From the NCBI GenBank assembly GCA_037129835.1, contig JBAXUE010000003.1, forward strand, positions 87,275 to 151,274: a stretch of 64,000 nt of DNA, written 5' to 3'. Positions 4,488 to 56,893 of the stretch are shown here, piece after piece. This stretch comes from a bacterium. Its GTDB lineage: Bacteria; Patescibacteriota; CPR2; UBA1875; CAIMLA01. The notes beneath the pieces are model-generated. The model was not told the DNA's origin. It was given only the letters and a program-made list of their open reading frames with translations, and made no database searches. The position numbers and the translations under genes are program-made. Each line of letters begins with the position of its first letter. Position 1 is the first letter of the stretch.

Positions 4488-7286
4488 ATGAAAAGACCAA
4501 AATTTGTACTTATAGATGGTCATGCATTAATTCACCGAGCATATCATGCCATCCCACCACTCACCACCAAAAAAGGTGAGATAGTGAACGCTGTATATGG
4601 TTTTACGATGATTGTGTTAAACGTTTTACGTGATCTGAAGCCAGACTACATAGCGGTGGCGATGGATCTTCCTGGAAAAACTTTCCGTCACCATGATTTC
4701 GCGGACTATAAAGCCACAAGGAAGAAAGCGGATGATGACCTGGTAGCACAGTTTCCCCGTGTTTATGATGTTATTAATGCCTTAAATATCCCAATTTATG
4801 AACAAAAAGGCTTCGAAGCAGATGATATTATCGGATCGGCAGCAGAAAAGCTTAAAAACGACTACGAAGTGTACGTTGTTACTGGCGATCTTGATGAATT
4901 GCAACTCGTCGATGACCACGTCCACATCTACACAATGAAACGAGGATTTTCGGATATCTTTATCTATGATAAAGCAGCAGTAATGGAAAGATATGGTCTA
5001 ACTCCAGAAGAATTCGTCATTTTAAAGGCTCTCAAGGGCGATACTTCTGACAATATTCCAGGCGTCGCAGGCATCGGAGAAAAAACTGCTATCGATCTCG
5101 CATCAAAATACAAAAGTTTAGACGATTTATATGACAATTTGTATGAAATAAAGTCCTCAATTGCAAAGAAACTAGAAGACGGCAAAGAAAGTGCTTATCT
5201 CAGCTTGCATCTTTCAACAATAGTTCGTGATATCCCACTCGATATTTGCGAAGATGATTGTAAAACGCACCAATTTGACCGAGATAAAGCATTGGAATTA
5301 TTTCGTGAACTTGAGTTTAAATCATTATTAACTAGATTGCCAGTGAATAAGGACGATAAGGATATGGATTCCCGCCTACGCGGGAATGACAAGGGGGAGG
5401 GTAAGGATGACAAATATGATAATAATGGCAACATGGTAGTGAGTGAAAGCCGAGACCATTATACCAAAGAAAATTATATTCTCATTAATAATGAAGCAGA
5501 ACTAGTAAATCTAGCTAGTAAATTGTCGGCTCAGAAAATTATCGCTGTCGATACAGAGACAGATTCATTGGATACTATCTCTGCAAATCTGGTAGGAATA
5601 TCGTTTTCTTTTGAAGAAGGTAAGGCATATTATATTGCGATACTTGGTCTAGGTGGAGATACACTATCAAAGGAAACCGTTATAAGGCACTTGGATCCGA
5701 TACTTCGAGATCCGAAGGTTTCTAAAGTCGGCCATAATATCAAGTTTGATTACGAAGTACTTTTTGCAAACGGGTTTAGTTTTGAAGGTATCGTTTTTGA
5801 TACTATGGTGGCGGCATATCTGATTAATCCTAATGCAAGAGCTCAAAGATTAGACGAGCTAGCTTTCACTGAGCTTGGTATCGAGATGACGAAAATCGAT
5901 GAACTGATAGGAAAAGGTAAAGAGGAGATAACTTTTGATAAAGTGGACATCAATTCAGCTGCACTTTATGCCGCCGAAGATGCTGACATTACTTTACGCT
6001 TATACCATCATCTGCAGACAGATTTAGCAGAAGGCGGCTTCAATGAACTGATGGGCAAAATAGAGGCACCACTGATAACTGTTTTGGCTCGTGTGGAAAT
6101 GAATGGAGTAAAAATAGATTTGCCTTTGCTTTCTGATTTGTCTAAATCTTTTGGTTTAAGAATAGAAAAGCTGCAAACAGAGATTTACAAATTGGCTGGT
6201 GAAGAATTCAATATTGCCTCGCCTCTTCAAATGCAAAAAGTGCTTTATGACAACCTGGACCTTAGAAATAAAATACCATTTCCAAAAGACATAAAGAAAT
6301 TACCATCTGGCGGTTACTCGACAGGAGCAGAGCAACTGGAAAAGCTACGAGATTCTGGTCACCCAATAATAGAAAAAATTTTAGAATATAGAGAGCTTGC
6401 AAAACTAAAGAGTACGTATATCGACTCCCTGCCGAAGCTTGTTAGCTCTAAAACTGGACGGATTCACACTAGCTTTAACCAAGCTATTGTGGCAACGGGC
6501 AGACTTTCTTCTACAAATCCAAATCTCCAGAATATTCCTATTCGCACAGAGACAGGCATGCAGATACGCAAAGCATTTATTGCAGATCCCGGAAACAAAA
6601 TATTATCTGCAGATTACTCCCAGATAGAGCTACGAATTATTGCTCATATGTCAGGTGACACTGAAATGATAAAAGCCTTTAATGATGGCATAGATATCCA
6701 TACGGCGACAGCTGCCAAAGTATTTGCAGTCGATGAAAAAGATGTGACCAAAGAGATGCGTCGTACAGCGAAGATCGTGAATTTCGGAATCGTATATGGA
6801 GTTTCTGCCCATGGGCTACAGCGCCAAAGCAATCTTGAGTATGCAAGTGCTAAAGATTTTATTGATAAATATTTCGAAACATACAAAGGCGTTAAGCTTT
6901 ATCTAGACGCAGCTGTAAAAATAGCAAAAGAAAGAGGTTTCGCCGAAACTTTATTTGGGCGCAGACGGTATTTACCAGAGCTAAATAGTTCGAATTTCGC
7001 GGTTCGCGGCTCTGCAGAACGTATGGCTGCGAATATGCCGATTCAAGGGACAGCCGCAGATCTTATCAAACTTGCGATGATAGAAATAGACAAAGATTTA
7101 ACTACGTTTAGCCCTAAAACTAGGCTACTTCTTACGGTTCACGACGAGCTTGTTTTCGAAATTCCAGAAGACGAGGTCCAAAAAGTACAAGACTTTGTAA
7201 AGAAAAAGATGGAAAATGTAGTCAAGCTAGACGTGCCTGTAGTAGTAGACATCGGAGTAGGCGATAACTGGGGAGAAGCGAAATGA
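4488..7286 (+). CDS. polA: DNA polymerase I (5'-3' exonuclease + 3'-5' exonuclease + polymerase domains)
   Basis: N-terminal FEN-like domain, a 3'-5' exonuclease domain (AVDTETDSL...YAAEDAD) and the pol A motifs (RRTAKIVNFGIVYG; TVHDELVFE). It carries an in-frame palindromic element at 5366-5390. Confidence 0.95.
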   Translation: MKRPKFVLIDGHALIHRAYHAIPPLTTKKGEIVNAVYGFTMIVLNVLRDLKPDYIAVAMDLPGKTFRHHDFADYKATRKKADDDLVAQFPRVYDVINALNIPIYEQKGFEADDIIGSAAEKLKNDYEVYVVTGDLDELQLVDDHVHIYTMKRGFSDIFIYDKAAVMERYGLTPEEFVILKALKGDTSDNIPGVAGIGEKTAIDLASKYKSLDDLYDNLYEIKSSIAKKLEDGKESAYLSLHLSTIVRDIPLDICEDDCKTHQFDRDKALELFRELEFKSLLTRLPVNKDDKDMDSRLRGNDKGEGKDDKYDNNGNMVVSESRDHYTKENYILINNEAELVNLASKLSAQKIIAVDTETDSLDTISANLVGISFSFEEGKAYYIAILGLGGDTLSKETVIRHLDPILRDPKVSKVGHNIKFDYEVLFANGFSFEGIVFDTMVAAYLINPNARAQRLDELAFTELGIEMTKIDELIGKGKEEITFDKVDINSAALYAAEDADITLRLYHHLQTDLAEGGFNELMGKIEAPLITVLARVEMNGVKIDLPLLSDLSKSFGLRIEKLQTEIYKLAGEEFNIASPLQMQKVLYDNLDLRNKIPFPKDIKKLPSGGYSTGAEQLEKLRDSGHPIIEKILEYRELAKLKSTYIDSLPKLVSSKTGRIHTSFNQAIVATGRLSSTNPNLQNIPIRTETGMQIRKAFIADPGNKILSADYSQIELRIIAHMSGDTEMIKAFNDGIDIHTATAAKVFAVDEKDVTKEMRRTAKIVNFGIVYGVSAHGLQRQSNLEYASAKDFIDKYFETYKGVKLYLDAAVKIAKERGFAETLFGRRRYLPELNSSNFAVRGSAERMAANMPIQGTAADLIKLAMIEIDKDLTTFSPKTRLLLTVHDELVFEIPEDEVQKVQDFVKKKMENVVKLDVPVVVDIGVGDNWGEAK
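5366..5390. repeat. GC-rich palindromic hairpin element inserted in-frame in the polA inter-domain linker
   Basis: ggattcccgc-ctac-gcgggaatgac is a perfect 9-bp inverted repeat, nearly identical to the intergenic copy at 53425-53448. The antisense pseudo-ORF 5195-5434 reads SFPRRRESI. Confidence 0.7.
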
Positions 7287-24127: not shown

Positions 24128-24949
24128 ATGAAAAATATTTTATTAATTGATAAACAGGCTGGTTGGACAAGCTTTGATGTGGTGGCGAAGATTCGTAATG
24201 CTGTAAATCAAATAAATAAAAATCAGGGTTTACCGAAAACAAAACATGGAGTGAAGGTCGGACACGCTGGAACGCTAGACCCCTTTGCAACAGGTTTATT
24301 GATAGTTTTGGTTGGTAAAGAAACCACTGCCAAGCAAGAGATGTTTATGAAGCAAGATAAAGAATATCAAGCGACGCTTAGGCTTGGGTTCACTAGCAGT
24401 ACTGGAGACCCAGAGGGGGATATTACGTCATTTATTCCGTTGGCATCTCTGGTTCCTGAATCAAGTTCAGGACAGACTCCAGCCCAGGGATCTATCCTGT
24501 CTTCCGAAGGAGATCCTCGCGTTCGCAAGGATGACAAGCCATTTTTAGAAGATATAGAGGGTGTGTTACAGACATTTCTTGGCGAAATAGAGCAAATCCC
24601 CCCCATTTATAGCGCAATTAAGATAGATGGCAAACGAGCATACAAGCTTGCTAGGGCTGGGGAAAAAGTTGTAATGAAACCACGGCTAGTGAATATTCTG
24701 AAACTAAAGATAGACAAATACGCATACCCAGAACTGCGAGTCACTGTTAAATGTTCTTCGGGGACATACATCAGAAGCTTGGCAGAAGATATTGGTAAGA
24801 CACTTGGTTGCGGTGCCTATTTGACTGAACTCAGGCGTACAAAGATCGGCCACTACTCGATAGCAGATGCCGTAACTGTTGAGGCTGCTTTGAAAACCCT
24901 TGTTAATCCATTGAATAATGCACCTGATTGTAGTATAATTGATGCATAA
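24128..24949 (+). CDS. truB: tRNA pseudouridine(55) synthase TruB with an in-frame ~25-aa insertion; no PUA domain
   Basis: Motif II GHAGTLDPFATGLL (catalytic Asp) and EQIPPIYSAIK. The segment between LRLGFTSSTGD and EQIPP is ~25 aa longer than in canonical TruB and holds hairpin repeats. Confidence 0.9.
   Translation: MKNILLIDKQAGWTSFDVVAKIRNAVNQINKNQGLPKTKHGVKVGHAGTLDPFATGLLIVLVGKETTAKQEMFMKQDKEYQATLRLGFTSSTGDPEGDITSFIPLASLVPESSSGQTPAQGSILSSEGDPRVRKDDKPFLEDIEGVLQTFLGEIEQIPPIYSAIKIDGKRAYKLARAGEKVVMKPRLVNILKLKIDKYAYPELRVTVKCSSGTYIRSLAEDIGKTLGCGAYLTELRRTKIGHYSIADAVTVEAALKTLVNPLNNAPDCSIIDA
24455..24536. repeat. degenerate two-hairpin palindromic element inserted in-frame in truB
   Basis: ttcctgaa-tcaag-ttcagga (24455-24474) and gatcctcgc-gttc-gcaaggatgac (24512-24535). 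In reverse complement the order is hairpin A then a cttgat-loop hairpin, the same arrangement as the intergenic element at 53398-53448. Both this and the polA copy end in tgacaag. Confidence 0.6.
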
Positions 24950-25023
24950 TTAAGTAACACCCACCATGAGGCTGAATCCGTCGATCGCCGGACAGGCTTC
25001 GGGTCGGGCAAGAAGGAAGAAAC

Positions 25024-25293
25024 GTGTCAATCAAAAAAGAAGAAAAAGAACAGATAGTAAAAGAAGTAGGTAGAAGTGATAAAGACACTGGTTCGCCAGA
25101 AGTTCAAGTAGCTATTTTTACTGAAAAAATCAAGCAACTTACGGACCATTTAAAGACTCATAAAAAGGATGAACATTCTAGGCGTGGTCTTTTAAAAATG
25201 GTAGGTAAAAGACGTAGGCTCCTCGACTATTTATCGCGAAAAAACAAAGAAGTTTACGAAGCTTTAGTCAAAAAACTAGGTCTTCGCAAATAA
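25024..25293 (+). CDS. rpsO: 30S ribosomal protein S15
   Basis: [48 protein letters not shown]; GTG start; followed by pnp. Confidence 0.95.
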
Positions 25294-25303
25294 TTAGCTA
25301 ATA

Positions 25304-25321
25304 CCGGCCCCAAGGGGCCGC
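25304..25321 (+). promoter_or_regulatory. GC-rich hairpin in the rpsO-pnp intergenic region (terminator/attenuator; processing-site candidate)
   Basis: ccggcccc-aa-ggggccg sits between rpsO and pnp, where an RNase III-processed attenuator hairpin is found in other bacteria. Confidence 0.5.
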
Positions 25322-25426
25322 AATTAGTTCATTAAACAATTGAATAGGAATCAGAGACAGGAAGTCGCATATGCGGTCGATTTGACTTCTTCCCCTGACT
25401 CCTATTCTATAAAAGAAAGGAGCATT

Positions 25427-32628: not shown

Positions 32629-32999
32629 ATTCTTTTTTTGGTTCTGTCAGCAAAGAAAGAAAAATGTCTTATCGTTTTGTCATTCCAAACTAGATTTGGG
32701 ATCCATGTCTAAAATATTTTAATACTTTTGTCTATCGTCACAAAAGTATCCAAAAAGACTCTTTTTCTCGCGATCAGAAAGCAGATCCGCGGTCTCAAGT
32801 GCTTATGTTTAGGTATAATTAAATTATTTTTTAACGCTCCCACGAACTCGGGTATCGTGTGTCGCCCAAAATCGGCTATAATTTTGGCAGAACCTCGCTT
32901 GTGACAGCTAACTCTATTATTTGATAAGGGAATATTGAAATTTAAATATATTTTATATCTTATTGTCAGAAAGTCTGAACTTGTGAGATAATGACCCTG

Positions 33000-45900: not shown

Positions 45901-48900
45901 ACTCAGGAATCACAATCGGCGCCAACATCTATAAGGCGCTAGGCGGCACGGGAGCGACAGGAGAATATGATAGTGATTGTGGTATAGGCACTGATGGTGG
46001 GACTTCTTTCCCGGCCGGTTTTGTTCCGACACAAAATGTTACAGGAGGCGCAGGCAACGGTGGTCCAAATCCGGGCGATGATTATTACGCAGGTGGCCCT
46101 GGTGGCGCCGGAGGTTTATTGGCGGGTACAATTGGTGTAAGTGGCGGCAGTGCTACTATTTCTGTTGGAGCCATGGGTTCTCCAAATGGTGGCGCTGGAT
46201 CGGTTTTGATAACTTATTCTCAAAATATATCAGCCACTACCACGCTTGATACTACGGCTCCAACGGCCGCTATCACTTATTCATTATCACGTAACGTGAA
46301 GACCGGTGATGTACAGCGCATTACTGCTACATTTAATGAAGATATACTAGCAGGTACTTTACCAAAAGTGGCTATATCTGGCTCAAATACACTTGCCGCT
46401 ACAGATATGGTTAGGACAGATGCCACTCACTATTATTATGACTACACCGTAGGAGCTGGCAATGGAGCGTCAACGATCGCTTTGAGCGTGGGAACTGATC
46501 TTGCCGGTAATGTGGTAACGTCAGCCCCAACATCTGGTGCAACCTTTACCGTTGACAATGTCCTGCCAACAATTACATCAGCTACTTCAACGACCGCTAA
46601 TGGCTATTACAAGGCCGCAAATATAGTAAATGTTACAGTAAATTTCTCTGAAATCGTGTCTTCAATAGGTAGTGTTACTGTCAACTTAGATTCAGGTGGC
46701 GCTTGTAGTTTTATAATTACGAATTCTAACAGCGGTAGCTGTAATTATACAGTCGGAGCGAGCGATAATAGCTCTGACTTGAATACTAGTTCCATCTCCG
46801 GAAATATCAAAGATTTGGCTTTAAATACCTTAACCAACTTCGCTCCAGCTGCTTCTTTAGCTTCATCGAAAGCAATAGTTATCGATACCACAGCCCCAAC
46901 GGCTGCTATCACTTATTCATTATCACGTAATGTGAAGACTGGTGATGTACAGCGCATTACTGCTACATTCAATGAAGCTATGTTAGTAGGTACTTTGCCA
47001 AAAGTTGCTATATCCGGCTCAAATACACTTGCCGCTACAGATATGGTCAGGACAGATGCCACTCACTATTATTATGACTACACCGTAGGAGCTGGCAATG
47101 GAGCGTCAACGATCGCTTTGAGCGTGGGAACTGATCTTGCCGGTAATGTGGTAACATCAGCCCCAACATCTGGTGCAACCTTTACAATCGATAATATTGT
47201 ACCGACTCTCACAACGGTGACGATAGCTTCGAATAACACCATAAACCATGTGGCCAAGATGGGTAATCAAATCACACTTACAATAGTGGCTAGTGAAAGT
47301 GTTACTACACCTACTGTTATAATTGCGGGGAACTCGGCGACCGTAACGGGTACAGGAACTAACTATTCCGCAGTTTATACTATGGTAAGTGGAGATACAC
47401 AAGGGACGGTGCTATTCTCTATTTCAGCTTTTCAGGATTCAGCACTCAATACAGGATCGGTTGTAAGCACGAATACAGGTGGTAACAACATCACTTACGA
47501 TAGAACAAACCCTGATCAAATAACTATTACCAGTGTTAGTCCCGCTACAAACAATACCGGAGAGCAGACTGTCACTTGGGCAGATTATACAGATTCCGCT
47601 CCAACTTCTGGTTTTGGTAAATATGTATTACAAAGAAAGAAATCAACAGATGTGGACTTCTCAGATATAAGTCCAAGCGTAGAGATAACAAGTCAATCGA
47701 CTCATACATATTTGGACCATATAGCTCAGTCTAGTAATAGCTCTGGCACTTATTACTATCGCGTTATCGCCTATGATAGAGCTGGTAATAGTAGTAATGG
47801 GGCTGCATCTCAGGCGGTTGTTATAGATAATCAGGCACCAGCCGGTACTTTGCACATTCTTGACACAGTTAATGGGACAGATCCAAAGGCGACAAAGAAC
47901 AGCACTGTAAACCTTTCTTTCATTCTTACAGATGATTATTCCGGAGTTTCTAGCTACTCTATAGATAATGGTGATGGAAATTGGTCGGAGTCTACAGATA
48001 TCTCTAGCGATGGCCTTAGCCATAGCGGTACTTATACTGGATGGGCTCTCGTAAACCCTAGCACCGAAGGAACTAAGACGGTACGAATAAAACTTGCCGA
48101 TAAGGCTGGAAATGAAGTAACCAACATCTCTCATACTATTATCCTAGATACTACTTCACCGGACAGCATTAGCTCAGTTGTTGCTTATAGTGACGATACT
48201 CAGGAAACATCAATCTCTGAAACTGGCGATAGCCTAGGATGGTACCCTTATACTGGCCCGAATTTTAAATTTATATCTTCGGATCAAGTATCTGGAATAA
48301 AAGAATTTAAGTATTGTATCTATCGCCCGTCTTCCGAGAGCTGTGATTATACGGCCAATTCAGCGGTATCGGCTAGCCAAATAAACAATTCGAAAAGCTA
48401 TACTGGCAATGTTACATTAGAGCTTACAGACTTTGGTAATAATAATATGCAGGGGGAATTGCTCTTTAAGGTAATCGGCGTAGATTATGTTGGTAAGACT
48501 AGTGCGCCGTCGACATATACTTACAAGTTTGATAATACAGTGCCAACTTATGTTAATAATTTTTCCGCTACCCAGGGCACCTATACTGACAAGATAGTCC
48601 TTACTTGGGACAAATCTTCAAATATTACCCCAGTCGCACCGATTGAAAAATATAAAATAGAGCGGGTTCAGTCGAGCTATTACAATGGAATCAACGACAG
48701 CGATTGGACTCAGTTTATAAATTATCAGAATATCACTTGTCAGACAGCTACACCTTATGTTTGTTTAGATAAAGATGGAGTCCAGGTCGGTAATATTAGT
48801 TTAGACGGGAGTAGTTATAAATTTGAGAATAAACCTGAGGTCGATGGTATATCGTCTACCTCTACCGATGCTTCTCTCTTGTCTTCAACTAAATATATTT

Positions 48901-52451: not shown

Positions 52452-52501
52452 CTTTCTCGTCTAAAGTAGCCGCCTACATACAAAATCATAAAGTCGAAAA
52501 T

Positions 52502-52530
52502 TATAGCCCGAAACAAGTATTCGGGCTATA
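52502..52530 (+). terminator. terminator hairpin after the giant gene
   Basis: tatagcccgaa-acaagta-ttcgggctata is an 11-bp stem. Confidence 0.6.
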
Positions 52531-52538
52531 ATCTATTC

Positions 52539-52982
52539 ATGCGTATTACCAAACAAGAAATAAAAAATAATGAAATCAGCGCCAGAAAATATCTTGAAGA
52601 TTATAATCTTGGGCAAGAACTTGCCTTTGATCATTTTGGTCTCCAGGCCCTGACAACAGACGAGTATCTTGAGCTAAAAGAGTTTTTCATTATAAGAGCA
52701 AAATTTGAGGGGGAAATTCATTTTCATGAACGACGTTTGGGCAAGTTTTACCTCGGTGATAAAAAGGACAAAATGGAACTTATTGAGCCGCATCCAGGAC
52801 AGGTATTTGTCCAGTATGATTGTTTCGTGGAACACGTAGCATTTAAGGTAAAATATATCGATAGGCTAAGAGATATACTCAAAGACAGAATTATCACCGA
52901 TTTTAACATTGAGGGTGCAAAAGGATTTAAGGTACAAGGACCAGGGGCACTTCTTATTGAGTTTCGGAATAACGAATTCTAG
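52539..52982 (+). CDS. hypothetical protein, possibly a VOC/glyoxalase-fold protein
   Basis: 147 aa with H/E-containing motifs (DHFGLQ, IEPHPGQ, EHVAFKV) that weakly suggest a VOC metal-binding fold. Confidence 0.35.
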   Translation: MRITKQEIKNNEISARKYLEDYNLGQELAFDHFGLQALTTDEYLELKEFFIIRAKFEGEIHFHERRLGKFYLGDKKDKMELIEPHPGQVFVQYDCFVEHVAFKVKYIDRLRDILKDRIITDFNIEGAKGFKVQGPGALLIEFRNNEF

Positions 52983-53197
52983 CTGTAATTATTACTATAT
53001 CTTCTTTTTTTATAATAACTTACTCCACTTTTGCATAGCCAGGGTGGAGGCATTAACCTGTCTGTTGCAGGCAGAGACCGAGCCTCAATATTTTACTGTT
53101 CGAAGTCTGGTAGTAGTTGGCTTGAGAACTGCTCCCCACGTCATTCCTCAATCTAGTTGAGGACAGGCTCTAAACTTGATTTAGGATCTCTTTCATA

Positions 53198-53247
53198 TTG
53201 TTCGAATTCTAATGAGAACTATAGACACATGTTATGTGTTATTTTCT
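53198..53247. repeat. 50-bp AT-rich direct repeat, copy 1
   Basis: ttgttcgaattctaatgagaactatagacacatgttatgtgttattttc; repeated at 53590-53638 with ~90% identity. Confidence 0.8.
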
Positions 53248-53397
53248 TTTCAATTTTCTCTTGAAAGAAAAATGAGTTAACCTGCCTGCCGCAGGCGGGA
53301 TTCAAGAAAAATCCTTCTTCGCACCCTAGCTTCCGACGTCGCTAAAGCTATGCTGGACAAATCGGACGGACAGGTCGAACTATTTCTACTCCCCGTT

Positions 53398-53448
53398 GTC
53401 ATTCCGGACTTGATCCGGAATCTAGATTCCCGCTTTCGCGGGAATGAC
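53398..53448. repeat. canonical double palindromic hairpin element (intergenic copy)
   Basis: gtcattccgga-cttga-tccggaatctag + gattcccgc-tttc-gcgggaatgac. Antisense pseudo-ORFs read SFPRKRESRFRIKSGMT. This is the same hairpin family as the polA and truB inserts. Confidence 0.8.
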
Positions 53449-53589
53449 GGGAGTGGGGACGATTGTCGGGTGCGTGACACCAAAGCGATTTTTCATAGGA
53501 ATTAACACTCAAAGCCCAAACCCTTACATCATCCTGAGTCGAAACGAAGCTTGCCTGCGGTAAGCAGGGATCCATGTCCACTCTCCTTA

Positions 53590-53638
53590 TCGTTCGAATT
53601 CTAATGAGAACTATAGATACAAGTTATATGTTATTTTT
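53590..53638. repeat. 50-bp AT-rich direct repeat, copy 2
   Basis: tcgttcgaattctaatgagaactatagatacaagttatatgttattttt. Confidence 0.8.
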
Positions 53639-53888
53639 CATAGAACCTACGTAATCCAACCATCAGGTCGAAAAGAAAGAGAGTTAAGTAGCGAACATAT
53701 AATAAATAACTTCCGGTATCGGCTTGTTGTTATTTATTATATTAGAGTTACTGTAACGAAAGATGCTTTAAAGAATCTGCTTGCTCGTTCCGCCCGCCCG
53801 AACGACCTTCAGGTCGGGCAGGTAACCTTGGTGAAGGAGGGTTAGGTTGGGCTTTTTGCACCACTTTTATCAAAAAAGTGGTAGTAAA

Positions 53889-54968
53889 CTACACATTAAA
53901 TTTAAATATCATTACATCGCCGTCTTGAACGATGTAATCTCGACCTTCGAGCCGAACCTTACCATCTGTTTTTGCCCCTACCCAGCCGTTATTTGAGATT
54001 AGATCACTGTAATTAACAACCTCTGCTTTGATAAAGCCTTTCTCGAAATCTCCATGAATTACGCCTGCGGCTTGTGGTGCCGTCCAGCCTTTTTTGATCG
54101 TCCAGGCTTTTATCTCTTTTTCTCCTGCAGTAAAGTACGTCTGTAGTCCTAGAAGGTCGAAACCTTTTTTTACGAGCGTGTCTAGGCCAGGTTCGTTCTG
54201 TCCTAGTTCTGCAAGATATTCGCGCTTTTCTTCTTTTGATAGTTCATTTAGCTCTGATTCTATTTTGGCTGAAATAAATACAGCATTTTGTGGTTTGATA
54301 TTTGTTTTTTGTATCAACGCCTTCGTATTTACTAGATGTTTTTCATCCCCATTAAGGACATAAATATGTGGTTTTGCCGTTAATAGACTTAGATCGGCTA
54401 TATGTTCATGTTCTTTTTCATTTAGTTCCATTTCTCGGATAGGGATAGTTGAGTTTAGAGATATTTCTACTTTCTCTAAAGTATCTAGAAGTGGTTTCAG
54501 TTTTGGTTCTTTTTTAATTTCTTTTTGTGTTTTTTCTAGCTTGCGAGTAACTGTTTCTATGTCTGCAAGTATTAGTTCGGTTTTAATCGTTTCAATGTCA
54601 GATATGGGGTCAATAACACCCGAAACATGCAGTACATTGCTGTCTTCAAATACCCGGACTACTTCTGCGATAGCGTCACAAGAGCGAATATTCGCTAAAA
54701 ATTTGTTCCCTAGGCCCTCACCAGTGCTAGCTCCCTTTACTATACCGGCTATATCTATAAATTCTACGACTGCGGGGACTAGTTGTTTAGTGGATATAAC
54801 TTTTTCCATTTCTGATAGACGATTGTCGGGTACGGCAACAATCCCAACATTTGGGTCTATAGTACAAAACGGGTAGTTTTGTGCCTCAACTTGATTGTTG
54901 GTGATAGCGTTGAACATTGTTGATTTGCCCACATTGGGTAATCCTACTATGCCGATAGATAGATTCAT
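53889..54968 (-). CDS. ychF: ribosome-binding ATPase YchF (Obg-like GTPase family)
   Basis: G1 GIVGLPNVGKST, G3 DIAGIV.GAS.G.GLG, and a TGS C-terminal domain ending VMIFKFNV. Confidence 0.95.
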   Translation of the reverse strand: MNLSIGIVGLPNVGKSTMFNAITNNQVEAQNYPFCTIDPNVGIVAVPDNRLSEMEKVISTKQLVPAVVEFIDIAGIVKGASTGEGLGNKFLANIRSCDAIAEVVRVFEDSNVLHVSGVIDPISDIETIKTELILADIETVTRKLEKTQKEIKKEPKLKPLLDTLEKVEISLNSTIPIREMELNEKEHEHIADLSLLTAKPHIYVLNGDEKHLVNTKALIQKTNIKPQNAVFISAKIESELNELSKEEKREYLAELGQNEPGLDTLVKKGFDLLGLQTYFTAGEKEIKAWTIKKGWTAPQAAGVIHGDFEKGFIKAEVVNYSDLISNNGWVGAKTDGKVRLEGRDYIVQDGDVMIFKFNV

Positions 54969-55178
54969 TATGCCTCATAATTGTTTATTTTCAGTCAGTA
55001 TTTTAGCACAAAATCACATATTTTGCACATGCCCTACAGAAAAATGTAGAACATTAGTTTAGTGAAAGCATAAACTGGGTAATTATAAGCCACTTAACCT
55101 ACTATTTTTGATATTAATATACTTGTTGGCAATAGTATTTATTGTATAATGTACTTAGTGATATAACTCGGAGGGGAT

Positions 55179-55289
55179 ATGGTTATTATGAATTCTTTGG
55201 GTAATATAACATGTTGGCCTATTTTTGATGTTCGCCATCCTGTTTTTTTTGGTAGTCCATTTTTAAAAATAACAAATAGAGGCGAATAA
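55179..55289 (+). CDS. 36-codon upstream ORF translationally coupled to pilM (taaATG)
   Basis: ggaggggatATG is the same RBS context as the major pilin gene at 61917-61931. Translation MVIMNSLGNITCWPIFDVRHPVFFGSPFLKITNRGE. Its stop abuts the pilM start codon. Confidence 0.3.
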   Translation: MVIMNSLGNITCWPIFDVRHPVFFGSPFLKITNRGE

Positions 55290-56324
55290 ATGGGTCTTTT
55301 CTTTAATAACAATGATTTTGTAGGAATCGAAATAGGAAATACCGCAATCCGTTTAGTTCAGCTTCGGTTGGTCGGGAAAAAGTATACTTTAATTTCTTTT
55401 GGCTCAGCACAGTTACCGCCAAAAATCGTTCAAAGCGATAGCAAGCTCGATATGCAGAAGGTTGCAGCTATTATTCAGCAGTTAGTAAAGTCATCTAAGG
55501 TCACAACTAAAAATGTCGCAACTGCTCTTCCTGCTTCTGCGGTATTCTCATTTATCGCAAAGATGCCACCGATGTCTCATGCCGAGTTAGAAAATGCTAT
55601 CAGATACCAAGCAGAACAAAATATTCCTCTGAAAATCGAAGATGTAAGAATAGATTGGCAAGTGATTCGAGAAAATCCAACAACTCATGAGACAGCAGTT
55701 ATGGTTGTCTCTGCGCCCAATAAAAACGCTTCAAGACTCCTCGAAATATTCAACATGGCAGATATGAATGTTATATTTCTTGAAACAAATTCTATCGCCA
55801 ATTCTAGGTCACTATCAAATCTGAATGATCCAATTGTGATGATTGTCGATATCGGAGCCGCCACAACAGAGATCACTATCGTTGAGAATAGTGTAGTTTC
55901 TCACGTGCGTAGTGTTTCTTCGGGCGGATACGCCTTTACTAGAGCTATTTCGCAAGGTCTGGGTTTGGACATTACCCAAGCCGAACAATTCAAACAAAAG
56001 TTTGGCATGTCGCAAGATAAGCTAGAGGGACAAGTATATAAGACACTAAAGCCTTTTGTCGGAAATATAACAGATGAGATACGAAGATCGATGAAATACT
56101 ATTATGAACAATTCGGAACCTCGGTACAAAAGATAGTTTTGACTGGTGGTAGTTCTCGCATGCTATTACTAGCAGAAAATATAAAAAATACATTAAATGT
56201 TGAAGTTACCTTTGGCAATCCGTGGATAAATGTAAAGGCTCAGCCCGAAGTAGTAGCGAAATTAAATGACATAGCCCCAGAGTTCGCTACAGTTGTCGGT
56301 CTTGCCATGAGAGATAACAAGTGA
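55290..56324 (+). CDS. pilM: type IV pilus assembly protein PilM (actin-like ATPase fold)
   Basis: GIEIGNTAIRLVQL N-terminus and an FtsA/actin-like fold; first gene of the pilMNO block. Confidence 0.85.
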   Translation: MGLFFNNNDFVGIEIGNTAIRLVQLRLVGKKYTLISFGSAQLPPKIVQSDSKLDMQKVAAIIQQLVKSSKVTTKNVATALPASAVFSFIAKMPPMSHAELENAIRYQAEQNIPLKIEDVRIDWQVIRENPTTHETAVMVVSAPNKNASRLLEIFNMADMNVIFLETNSIANSRSLSNLNDPIVMIVDIGAATTEITIVENSVVSHVRSVSSGGYAFTRAISQGLGLDITQAEQFKQKFGMSQDKLEGQVYKTLKPFVGNITDEIRRSMKYYYEQFGTSVQKIVLTGGSSRMLLLAENIKNTLNVEVTFGNPWINVKAQPEVVAKLNDIAPEFATVVGLAMRDNK

Positions 56325-56893
56325 AAATCAATTTAATCCCAGAGATTAGACAAGAGCAAGTCAGGATACAAAAGACAAATGCCCTTGTCACAATGATAGC
56401 CATTATTCTGGCGGTAGTTTTGGGGGCGATAATTTTACTTCTAAGTGGAATGTTTCTAGCTAGAATGGCACAGGCCAATCAGTACAACGCTTCAATTACA
56501 CAAATAAATAAGAATATTAAGTCTCAAGCTGCATTAGAAAAAACGGTAATAGATGTTTCAAAAGGCATCCAAGATGTAAAAAGTATTTTAGGAACAGATA
56601 ATAAATGGAAGAATTTTTTTAGTGATCTCGAAAAAGCAACCCCTGGAGATGTTAGATTCAAATCGCTTAGTATTACGTCAGACGGCAAGGCCTCTGCCGA
56701 AATGGAAGCAAGAGATGTTACTTCATTGGACCGATTTCTTACGTCTTTTTCAACGTATAAACGAAAAGACCTAGTTACAAATACTGATAAAAATAATTTA
56801 TTTTCAGACGTAGTGGTAGCAGGCTATAATGTGGATGATACAGGTAAAATAAATTTTTCTGCTACTTTCTTAGTAAATTTAAAGGAACTATAA
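56321..56893 (+). CDS. pilN: PilN-like bitopic pilus assembly protein
   Basis: Short cytoplasmic N-terminus (INLIPE), a single TM helix and a periplasmic domain. Overlaps the pilM stop. Confidence 0.6.
   Translation: MKINLIPEIRQEQVRIQKTNALVTMIAIILAVVLGAIILLLSGMFLARMAQANQYNASITQINKNIKSQAALEKTVIDVSKGIQDVKSILGTDNKWKNFFSDLEKATPGDVRFKSLSITSDGKASAEMEARDVTSLDRFLTSFSTYKRKDLVTNTDKNNLFSDVVVAGYNVDDTGKINFSATFLVNLKEL

Follow-up and report, generated by a model that had tools for sequence, protein, structure and literature searches.

The gap between ychF and the 147-aa gene

The 64-kb window analysed here (positions 87,275 to 151,274 of contig JBAXUE010000003.1; coordinates below are those of the window) comes from an uncultured bacterium, one of the candidate phyla radiation type. 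The DNA is AT-rich, with a G+C content of about 35-45%, and genes are densely packed; they include type IV pilus genes and one for a 3177-aa repeat protein. Between a 147-aa open reading frame (ORF) on the plus strand (52539-52982) and ychF on the minus strand (53889-54968) lies a gap of 906 bp (52983-53888). It is probably a lineage-specific mosaic array of DNA hairpins of the class of the Neisseria Transformation Sequence (NTS) and dRS3, known as Ssn-related motifs (SRM), and of AT-rich linkers, a counterpart of the arrays of Neisseria intergenic mosaic elements (NIME). The original prediction, made from the letters of the DNA, had called this gap very long and non-coding, and it is indeed by far the largest inter-ORF gap in the window (ORFs of at least 90 aa), more than twice as large as the runner-up of about 390 bp (24949-25340). 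Its sequence is reproduced in three independent assemblies, with 100% identity over 53190-55077 (L003), 100% over 53827-56694 (L002) and 99.9% over 53714-55070 (L004), and it is thus not an assembly artefact.

The repeats and hairpins that had been proposed for the gap are all present and far above chance, and their coordinates shift by at most about 2 nt, with the exception of one hairpin. The 50-bp direct repeat, expected at 53198-53247 and 53590-53638, was found at 53196-53245 and 53588-53637 with 92% identity, and its 26-nt core has two matches in the window versus 0.00 in shuffles. The motif regarded as a unit start (53055-53077 and 53279-53300) was located at 53053-53072 and 53277-53296; the copies are 85% identical, and again two matches stand against 0.00 expected. 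The canonical double hairpin at 53398-53448 consists of two perfect 8-bp stems and an outer stem, the smaller hairpins placed at 53146-53173 and 53553-53573 lie at 53145-53163 and 53554-53568, and the GC-rich motif cttcaggtcgggcagg is exactly at 53807-53822. The exceptional hairpin, described as a 10-bp stem at 53707-53745, exists with longer arms (53697-53710 and 53729-53742), which are 14 nt long and 100% complementary. As had been supposed, the ORFs of the gap are only repeat-derived pseudo-peptides (VIPDLIRNLDSRFRGNDG and SFPRKRESR).

The proposed arrangement in two tandem units is correct for the shared ends and incorrect for the tandem register, since only the ends are common to both units. 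Moreover, the 50-nt repeat had been taken as the end of a unit, and relatives place it at the start of a conserved block. Read against these relatives, the better register appears to be modular, with hairpin modules that alternate with linker modules.

The double hairpin and its NTS copy

The double hairpin is a tail-to-tail pair of SRMs. Its minus-strand member (53422-53449, CGTCATTCCCGCGAAAGCGGGAATCTAG) matches the NTS consensus CGTCATTCCCGCGMAVGCGGGAATCYRG at 28 of 28 positions and includes a strict dRS3 (53426-53445). The 28-nt consensus, for which one mismatch is allowed, contains the dRS3 sequence ATTCCC-N8-GGGAAT and is bound, as single-stranded DNA only, by the 94-aa GIY-YIG protein SsnA, whose cleavage site is a few nucleotides upstream of it; many phyla have SRM and Ssn homologs (Chenal et al. 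2025, PMC11893778). The plus-strand partner tGTCATTCCGGACTTGATCCGGAATCTAG has an NTS-like architecture and overlaps the NTS on the palindromic CTAG. Together with the C-rich leaders, the pair makes up a palindrome of 71 nt, which folds into a three-way junction, and the DNA fold of the double hairpin has -20.6 kcal/mol (z = -4.8). A PLSDB search with the whole 906 bp gave matches only in two N. gonorrhoeae chromosomes, in 12-13 places each and with 92-94% identity, and all of them fall on the NTS hairpin. A phage or plasmid origin was rejected: there was no phage match, and these NTS copies in the two chromosomes are the only matches in the plasmid collection.

Enrichment was counted over the 64-kb window. 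The published SRM search sequence, HGTCWYN(0-2)YYVSBRHN(0-5)WNVSBRGN(0-2)RNCYNB, has two sites (53422-53449 and 5364-5391) versus 0.22 in shuffles, the former being the only one in the gap. Under a relaxed definition (a GTCATYC hairpin with a 7-8-bp stem), by which the hairpins S1, S3 and S5 are counted as SRM-like, seven hairpins were found and 0.155 are expected from dinucleotide shuffles; three of the seven lie in the 906-bp gap (binomial P about 1e-4). Altogether, the gap has at least five hairpins of the NTS/SRM class, three intact and two decayed (S2 and S5).

The double hairpin was then sought in one genome per GTDB species with the pattern GTCATTCC-N8-14-GGAATCTAGATTCC-N8-14-GGAATGAC. 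It is present at 35 sites on 34 DNA stretches in 14 GTDB genomes of very different lineages: Tisiphia, Rickettsia, Brocadiales and other Planctomycetes, several Gracilibacteria, Bacteroidales, Bdellovibrionales, Aminicenantes, Balneolaceae, and Levyi-, Peri- and Wolfebacteria. The copy in a Wolfebacteria metagenome-assembled genome (MAG; L056) is identical to the window pair at 51 of 51 positions. Gracilibacteria have many copies, often near contig ends. In the Gracilibacteria MAG GL114_DN_metabinner_8 (L025-L051), the double hairpin and its conserved flanks are located about 20-80 nt from the contig end in at least six contigs; there it belongs to a larger dispersed repeat, which breaks the assembly.

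In the 22 distinct sequences of the double hairpin, four of the six free stem pairs (stem positions unconstrained by the search pattern) vary on both sides, in 31 cells. None of 500 shuffles reached this, and slid controls collapse. There are neither one-sided changes nor G-U intermediates at the six free pairs. Such Watson-Crick-only covariation is more in keeping with a hairpin of DNA than with one of RNA, and it may be regarded as weak evidence against a constraint at the RNA level.

Modules of the array

The modules are listed in Table 1. The linker T, with the consensus TRTYGTTCGAA...GAGAACTA, is present in three copies, one of them degenerate; the H modules (CCTGCC...GGCAGG) are present in four, including the presumed unit start and the GC-rich motif mentioned above. 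The G+C content runs in a wave, with 52-74% in the H, NTS-pair and S5 modules, 24-26% in T and P, and about 40%, near the window average, in the AT-stemmed S1 and S2. T1 is collinear with TATTGTTCGAAGTCT...GAGAACTAT of the related locus L007 (53093-53130 matches L007 6798-6761). T2 contains GATCTCTTTCATATTGTTCGAATTCTAATGAGAACTATAG, which does not vary between the window, L007 and L008. S5 encloses the H-type hairpin CCTGCGGTAAGCAGG and ends with GGGATCC, and 53548-53574 within it matches L017 7395-7421 at 96% identity. H4 is related to a module inside a hairpin of L007 (53793-53823 versus L007 6719-6689, 84%). The small hairpin just past the ychF stop codon could possibly be the terminator stem of this gene.

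Table 1. Features of the 906-bp gap and of the adjacent 147-aa gene (a dot marks features without an assigned strand).
Feature	Position	Strand	Remarks
147-aa gene, function unassigned	52539-52982	+	conserved, real gene; orientation inverted relative to more distant relatives
H1, GC-rich hairpin ttaaCCTGTCTGTTGCAGGCAGag, predicted unit start copy 1	53053-53077	+	direct repeat D3, inverted repeat I3
T1, degenerate linker copy (TACTGTTCGAAGTCT ... GAGAACT) with 15-nt insert	53094-53130	+	repeat family D2
S1, SRM-like hairpin with C-rich leader (gctccccacGTCATTCCTCAATCTAGTTGAGGAcagg)	53131-53165	+	GTCATYC-hairpin scan
S2, decayed hairpin GGCTCTAAACTTGATTTAGGATC, GTCAT head lost	53166-53188	+	aligns with intact GTCATTCTGAACTTGATTCAGGATC in L007 and GTCATCCTAAACTTGATTTAG in L008
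T2, AT-rich linker (26% G+C), 50-bp repeat copy 1	53196-53245	+	direct repeat D1
P, AT-rich hairpin CAATTTTCT-CTTGAA-AGAAAAATG, followed by conserved GAGTTAA	53251-53274	.	near-invariant in three loci (alignment A2)
H2, GC-rich hairpin (74% G+C), unit start copy 2	53277-53303	+	insert relative to L007
Core, 5' part: ...AAGAAAAATCC...GGACAGGTCGAACT..TCTACTC	53304-53385	.	conserved blocks common to L007 and L008
Palindromic double-hairpin unit: C-rich leader, SRM-like hairpin on plus strand (53397-53425), NTS on minus strand (53422-53449), common central CTAG	53386-53456	.	
Core, 3' part: GTCGGG, small hairpin at 53469-53481 (GGTG/CACC), AAGCGATTTTTCATAGG	53461-53505	.	alignment A2
Direct repeat ATTTTTCATAG, copy 1	53488-53498	+	left flank of the 145-nt unit absent from L001
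S5, long SRM-like hairpin, head degraded to CATCATCC (versus GTCATCC)	53527-53573	+	intact form GTCATCCTGAGTCGAAACGAAGCTTGCCTGCGGTAAGCAGGGATCC in L009
T3, linker, 50-bp repeat copy 2	53588-53637	+	similarity to T2 and P extends to 53689 (nhmmer)
Direct repeat ATTTTTCATAG, copy 2	53633-53643	+	match of L001 to the window ends at 53633
ychF-proximal AT-rich segment with 14-bp-stem hairpin (53697-53742)	53646-53779	.	99% in L001, 93% in L009, 97% in L017 (inverted)
H4, GC-rich module (64% G+C) with motif cttcaggtcgggcagg	53780-53840	-	missing at this position in L017
Hairpin CCACTTTT-ATCAA-AAAAGTGG just past the ychF stop codon	53861-53881	.	no T-run

This organisation resembles that of the NIME arrays, in which 20-bp dRS3 elements (ATTCCC-N8-GGGAAT) flank RS elements of about 50-150 bp, and which were reported as Neisseria-specific (Bentley et al. 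2007, PMC1797815). In the window, too, hairpins alternate with families of AT-richer spacers of 25-200 bp with a wave in G+C content (PMC1797815), and the syntenic array varies among close relatives (the window, L001, L009 and L017), with recombination end-points inside. In contrast to Neisseria, there is a single array of about 0.8 kb in the 64-kb sample. When compared to the NTS/SsnA system (PMC11893778), the similarities comprise the 28/28 NTS copy with its dRS3, the oriented GTCAT head and the C kept after the palindrome, multiple copies above the level of shuffles, and a small single-domain GIY-YIG gene beside the array of the relative L007. The differences are a Patescibacteria-like MAG as host, AT-stemmed local copies which mostly fail the SRM search sequence, the frequent tail-to-tail pairs which share CTAG and have a C-rich 5' leader, no nuclease gene in the window, and an L007 nuclease which has no BLAST similarity in N. 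gonorrhoeae and looks closer to UPF0213. The REP/BIME-RAYT systems are similar in that extragenic palindromes, recognised as single-stranded hairpins, form mosaics with linker motifs, and in that a small domesticated nuclease gene is flanked by its own repeats. They differ in the repeat sequence and in the nuclease, which is GIY-YIG here and not HUH/Y1 (IS200/IS605-like); no RAYT was found here.

Hairpins of the same kind are also found inside genes of the window. In polA (ORF 4488-7286), the in-frame SRM hairpin TGTCATTCCCGCGTAGGCGGGAATCCAT at 5364-5391 on the minus strand encodes MDSRLRGNDKGEGKDD, holds a strict dRS3 (5368-5387) and is preceded by a half-motif at 5411. The insert belongs to the linker that joins the 5'-3' exonuclease (residues 1-265) and 3'-5' exonuclease (330-513) domains. 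The TruB gene (ORF 24128-24949) has two in-frame hairpins, GTCATCCTTGCGAACGCGAGGATC and GTCCTGAACTTGATTCAGGAAC, in a loop (24455-24535, minus strand). This insert of about 30 aa is missing in six of nine aligned homologs, and since the remaining three hold other inserts at the same site, the loop looks like a recurrent landing site. In-frame palindromes in essential genes, in addition to intergenic ones, are reminiscent of the Rickettsia palindromic elements (RPE), and Rickettsia and Tisiphia carry the double hairpin of the window. RPEs were defined in Rickettsia and are 100-150 bp long; in contrast, the units described here have 25-51 nt.

Comparison with related loci

A metagenome scan with a 19-mer of T led to the related loci L007, L008 and L009. 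Of its six metagenome matches, three are these loci and three are seed-only (20-24 nt), consistent with chance; no match was obtained in 185,579 GTDB genomes or in viral contigs, and the core pattern is likewise without matches in viral contigs. In L007, the gene for the giant protein is 68% identical to that of the window and is followed by the array in the same place, with the module order S-T1-S-S-T2-P-core-S-S-S-T3, collinear with the window. L008 contains S-S-T2-P-core at a different locus, upstream of rpmH-rnpA. T, P and core share long invariant stretches in the window, L007 and L008, and the NTS pair of the window sits in the core where L007 and L008 have an AT-rich hairpin. The hairpins of L007, L008 and L009 all fail the published SRM search sequence.

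In more distant relatives (L020, L022, L058 and L059; YchF 77-80% identical), a 148-aa gene directly follows ychF with gaps of 0-60 bp, and the repeat block is missing at ychF in these loci. In L020/L021, a small 23S_rRNA_IVP gene sits between ychF and the 148-aa gene. According to tblastn, the ortholog of the 147-aa protein has 76% aa identity in L022 and 71.5% in L020/L021. In L020-L022 the ortholog abuts ychF on the same strand; in the window the gene is convergent with ychF and thus inverted. L059 (YchF 78%) has two head-to-head hairpins, GTCATTCCGAACTTGTTTCGGAATC and GTCATCCTGAATTTATTTCAGGATC, at 4787-4842, about 230 bp past the 148-aa gene and at the contig end. They lie inside the called 3' end of the gene that follows the 148-aa gene.

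Among the close relatives, L001 has an identical YchF and is 99.4% identical to the window as far as 53633, where a diverged core and different genes begin. The diverged core contains the hairpin variant GTCATCCTTACGAAAGTAAGGAC with compensated stem changes. A hairpin-plus-T unit of 145 nt (S5-T3) that L001 lacks is flanked in the window by the 11-nt direct repeat given in Table 1; this is a single case, in which the repeat overlaps with the end of T and which a microhomology-mediated duplication explains equally well. L009 (93% identical) departs from the window within the head of S5 (GTCAT); beyond this point it has two additional hairpins and genes that are unrelated. In L017 (YchF 90%), the ychF-proximal segment is inverted, position 53779 is joined directly to 53841 and H4 is absent; downstream of ychF, this locus has hairpins and DNA homologous to the intergenic region of the window at 32.7 kb. 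That region (32679-32869) consists of the hairpin GTCATTCCAAACTAGATTTGGGATCC and the adjacent 150 bp, and its homology to the L017 DNA directly downstream of ychF is 76-91%, so that a module is either exchanged or shared between the two loci. The breakpoints in L001, L009 and L017 fall at module edges. In the best-supported interpretation, the array is a functional analogue of the NIME arrays and a hotspot at which DNA is inserted, replaced and inverted.

The original prediction had offered a nest of miniature inverted-repeat transposable elements (MITEs), the remnant of a mobile element, or a pair of small RNA genes. The first two have gained ground: the hairpins belong to a dispersed repeat class that spans phyla and has copies elsewhere, presence and absence vary, the block is missing in distant and rearranged in close relatives, and the 145-nt unit exists. 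As to MITE traits, the double-hairpin unit of 71 nt is an inverted repeat in its own right, and the 145-nt unit is polymorphic, being absent from L001, in one case. No positive support was obtained for small RNA genes.

The same comparisons bear on the idea that the gap is junk, left over from a decayed gene or prophage end, with meaningless hairpins and repeats. Some modules are visibly degraded (S2 without GTCAT, the altered head of S5, T1 with its insert). On the other hand, the modules are 85-100% conserved across loci whose genes diverged much more, another candidate phylum has an identical copy of the double hairpin, the stems of which covary, and the 906 bp have no match in phage records. 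Moreover, relatives without the block have nothing in its place apart from the 23S_rRNA_IVP gene in L020/L021, so that no gene was lost. The original prediction had tied this explanation to a lack of conservation in relatives and of copies elsewhere; both conservation and other copies were found. We consider junk very improbable.

The T-P-core block and the possibility of a small RNA

The long invariant stretches of T, P and core raise the question of a small RNA. One or two small RNA genes could exist in the gap, with T as promoter and with P and core (about 53246-53505) as a structured noncoding RNA into which hairpins were inserted, and with a second, degenerate unit after T3. In line with this, T-P-core is highly conserved in three loci whose settings are unrelated (L008) or just 68% identical (L007). 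The core hairpin has two compensatory pairs among the three sequences (GGTG/CACC in the window, GGGC/GCCC in L007, GGTAC/GTACC in L008), yet three sequences are too few for a covariation test. Folding is strong (z = -5.5 for the plus strand), but the minus strand folds equally well (z = -5.0), as palindromic DNA does. Sigma-70-like sites with 9/12 and 10/12 matches are found at the same place in T of the window and of L007; however, promoter-like sites number one versus 2.0 in shuffles, and the scan revealed no terminator-like sites. Further, the central hairpin of the core is swapped wholesale in the window, there is no downstream gene in common, and nhmmer with a T-P-core profile revealed no additional copies in any of the related loci fetched (about 350 kb).

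The Francisella small RNA FtrB (RF02748), which was verified by Northern blot, contains the same hairpin (PMC3091763). FtrB also gave the best Rfam score in the gap, 18.8 bits versus a gathering threshold of 66. The similarity consists of a GUCAUUCCCGCG-loop-CGCGGGAAUC hairpin followed by a second hairpin, and because it is confined to the repeat hairpins, FtrB is not a homologous gene. No known RNA family was thus assigned: at the gathering threshold Rfam has 0 matches in the whole window and none in the five related loci, and there is nothing convincing at E <= 10 in the gap or at E <= 1 in these loci. Their one sub-threshold match, to the L20 leader (L008 1136-1254, 25.5 versus 58.7 bits), lies outside the repeat region. 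Considering both sides, we regard small RNA genes as distinctly unlikely; the array represents an element of a known kind, found in a new host, and not a known RNA gene.

Alternatively, T-P-core (about 53196-53505, approximately 230 nt without inserts) might be a functional element that moves together with the hairpins and was not described before. This is suggested by its near-invariance in three unrelated settings, by the covarying hairpin and by the central stem, which accepts inserts; in addition, T3, which lies downstream of the block in L007, is about 100 nt upstream of a GIY-YIG gene. One possibility is a transposon that is driven by a GIY-YIG nuclease specific for single-stranded DNA and has T-P-core as its non-autonomous, mobilisable unit, in which case the 145-nt unit would be a fresh insertion; another is a structured RNA that works with the GIY-YIG nuclease. 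We judge a new functional element to be improbable to much the same degree as the small RNA genes.

Further candidates were rejected. An integration site at a tRNA or tmRNA gene is not supported, since ARAGORN found none in the window. A replication origin is not indicated either: the gap has no match to the DnaA box, the counts in the window equal chance, and the cumulative GC skew shows no switch. Coding modules were rejected as well: a tiny minus-strand ORF (MKNRFG...) has 24, 45 and 16 aa in the window, L007 and L008, respectively, the tails are unrelated, and the plus-strand frames are broken by indels. This ORF (MKNRFG.. PT(I/V)..) starts exactly at the edge of the core, from 53498 downwards on the minus strand in the window, from 6482 onwards on the plus strand in L007 and from about 678 downwards on the minus strand in L008. 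It shows some synonymous third-position changes and no visible ribosome-binding site, and it is probably not a gene.

A GIY-YIG nuclease as possible partner

In L007, an 84-aa single-domain GIY-YIG ORF (PF01541, E = 2e-15) begins about 100 nt after T3. Its family is 75-82% identical across many candidate phyla. Based on the perfect NTS, the published biochemistry and this gene beside a collinear array, it is tempting to link the array of the window to a GIY-YIG nuclease. When the DNA is single-stranded during replication, repair or uptake, each GTCATYC-stem-loop-stem-GRATC unit would form a hairpin, which a small single-domain nuclease of the Ssn type would bind and cut a few bases 5' of it. 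The nicks, together with the many short homologies, could then lead to insertion, duplication, replacement and inversion of modules and neighbouring genes. We infer that a nuclease of this genome may recognise the hairpins and that this recognition would drive the rearrangements. Transcription of the convergent 147-aa gene and ychF may, as a side effect, end at the hairpins that separate them.

Several observations weigh against the assignment to NTS/dRS3-class arrays and against the nuclease link. With respect to the hairpins, a single one in the gap passes the published SRM search sequence, and S1, S3 and S5 fail it, their stems being AT-rich or irregular; only one copy thus belongs to the NTS class in the strict sense. 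Likewise, with one strict dRS3 in the gap and variant hairpins at the other boundaries, the array is not a NIME as strictly defined. T, P and core are not hairpin repeats, are too well conserved for spacers, and are left unexplained by the model, and the variant junctions in the relatives rest on short metagenome contigs. With respect to the nuclease, tblastn did not reveal a GIY-YIG gene in the 64-kb window (best E = 1.8), so that a cognate nuclease encoded by this genome is hypothetical. For the L007 protein, tblastn gave no match in the two N. gonorrhoeae chromosomes even at E <= 10, and a PDB search gave UPF0213 only, a UPF0213 protein being the nearest solved structure; the L007 nuclease may fall outside the Ssn clade (cd10448). 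Finally, its homolog loci L011, L012 and L013 have no such hairpin nearby (3-kb flanks for L011 and L012). The GIY-YIG link in particular is weakened by the missing gene, the lack of BLAST similarity in N. gonorrhoeae and the UPF0213 structure.

The absence of the gene from the window leads to a further explanation, namely that the array is the remnant of a mobile element which once carried its own GIY-YIG gene in the order hairpin - nuclease - hairpin, the gene having been deleted here. The L007 array ends with T3 and the GIY-YIG gene, and in the window T3 is followed by 250 bp of non-coding DNA. The high identity of the family across candidate phyla would be expected of a horizontally moving gene, the homologs in L014 and L016, which lie beside a Bro-N gene, have one GTCATCC hairpin about 1 kb away, and an architecture NTS-ssnA-NTS similar to that of insertion sequences was noted in the NTS study (PMC11893778). 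Against this, tblastn detected no trace of a GIY-YIG frame in 53638-53888 or in the rest of the window, so that a decayed gene of this kind in the gap was rejected. The 250 bp after T3 have no similarity to the sequence after T3 in L007, L008 has the unit without the gene, the L007 hairpins are on one side of the gene only, and transposition by an Ssn protein was never shown. A remnant is therefore somewhat unlikely in our opinion, and we prefer the mosaic array of NTS/dRS3-class hairpins and linkers.

The GIY-YIG homologs (80% identical) in L011 (2445-5529), L012 and L014-L016 overlap the 3' end of a gene with a Bro-N domain. In L011 and L012 the homolog is followed by a reverse transcriptase (RVT_1), and L011 additionally has bAvd, which makes it a diversity-generating retroelement. 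Here the nuclease is found in another setting, which is phage-like. Because of the reverse transcriptase and Avd genes in L011, such a retroelement was also considered for the gap and rejected, as the four mismatches between the 50-nt copies (T/C, C/T, T/A and G/A) are not adenine-specific.

Implications of a hairpin array outside Neisseria

Hairpins and arrays of the NTS/dRS3 type were worked out in Neisseria, and their tie to a nuclease and their presence in other phyla were shown only in 2025. This work adds a host that is uncultured and Patescibacteria-like, with a reduced genome; its perfect NTS and NIME-like array are located where close relatives differ by insertion, replacement and inversion. 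This supports the view that the hairpins are a general bacterial genome-shaping system and not a peculiarity of Neisseria. The compensated stem of L001, the AT-rich stems and the tail-to-tail pairs are natural variants for work on small GIY-YIG nucleases. Last but not least, the array accounts for one class of "hypothetical proteins" (SFPRKRESR, RFRGNDG) and for many of the contig breaks that such MAGs show.

Neighbouring genes

The 147-aa protein has no matches in Pfam and NCBIfam. The 87-bp spacer before the start codon of its gene (region 52452-52982) contains a hairpin with an 11-bp stem, TATAGCCCGAA-ACAAGTA-TTCGGGCTATA, the loop of which resembles the CAAG loops of the hairpin family. The gene for the 3177-aa protein, which is of the surface type, is located 0.5 kb from the array and contains a 300-nt direct repeat (46248-46547 and 46884-47183, 95% identical).

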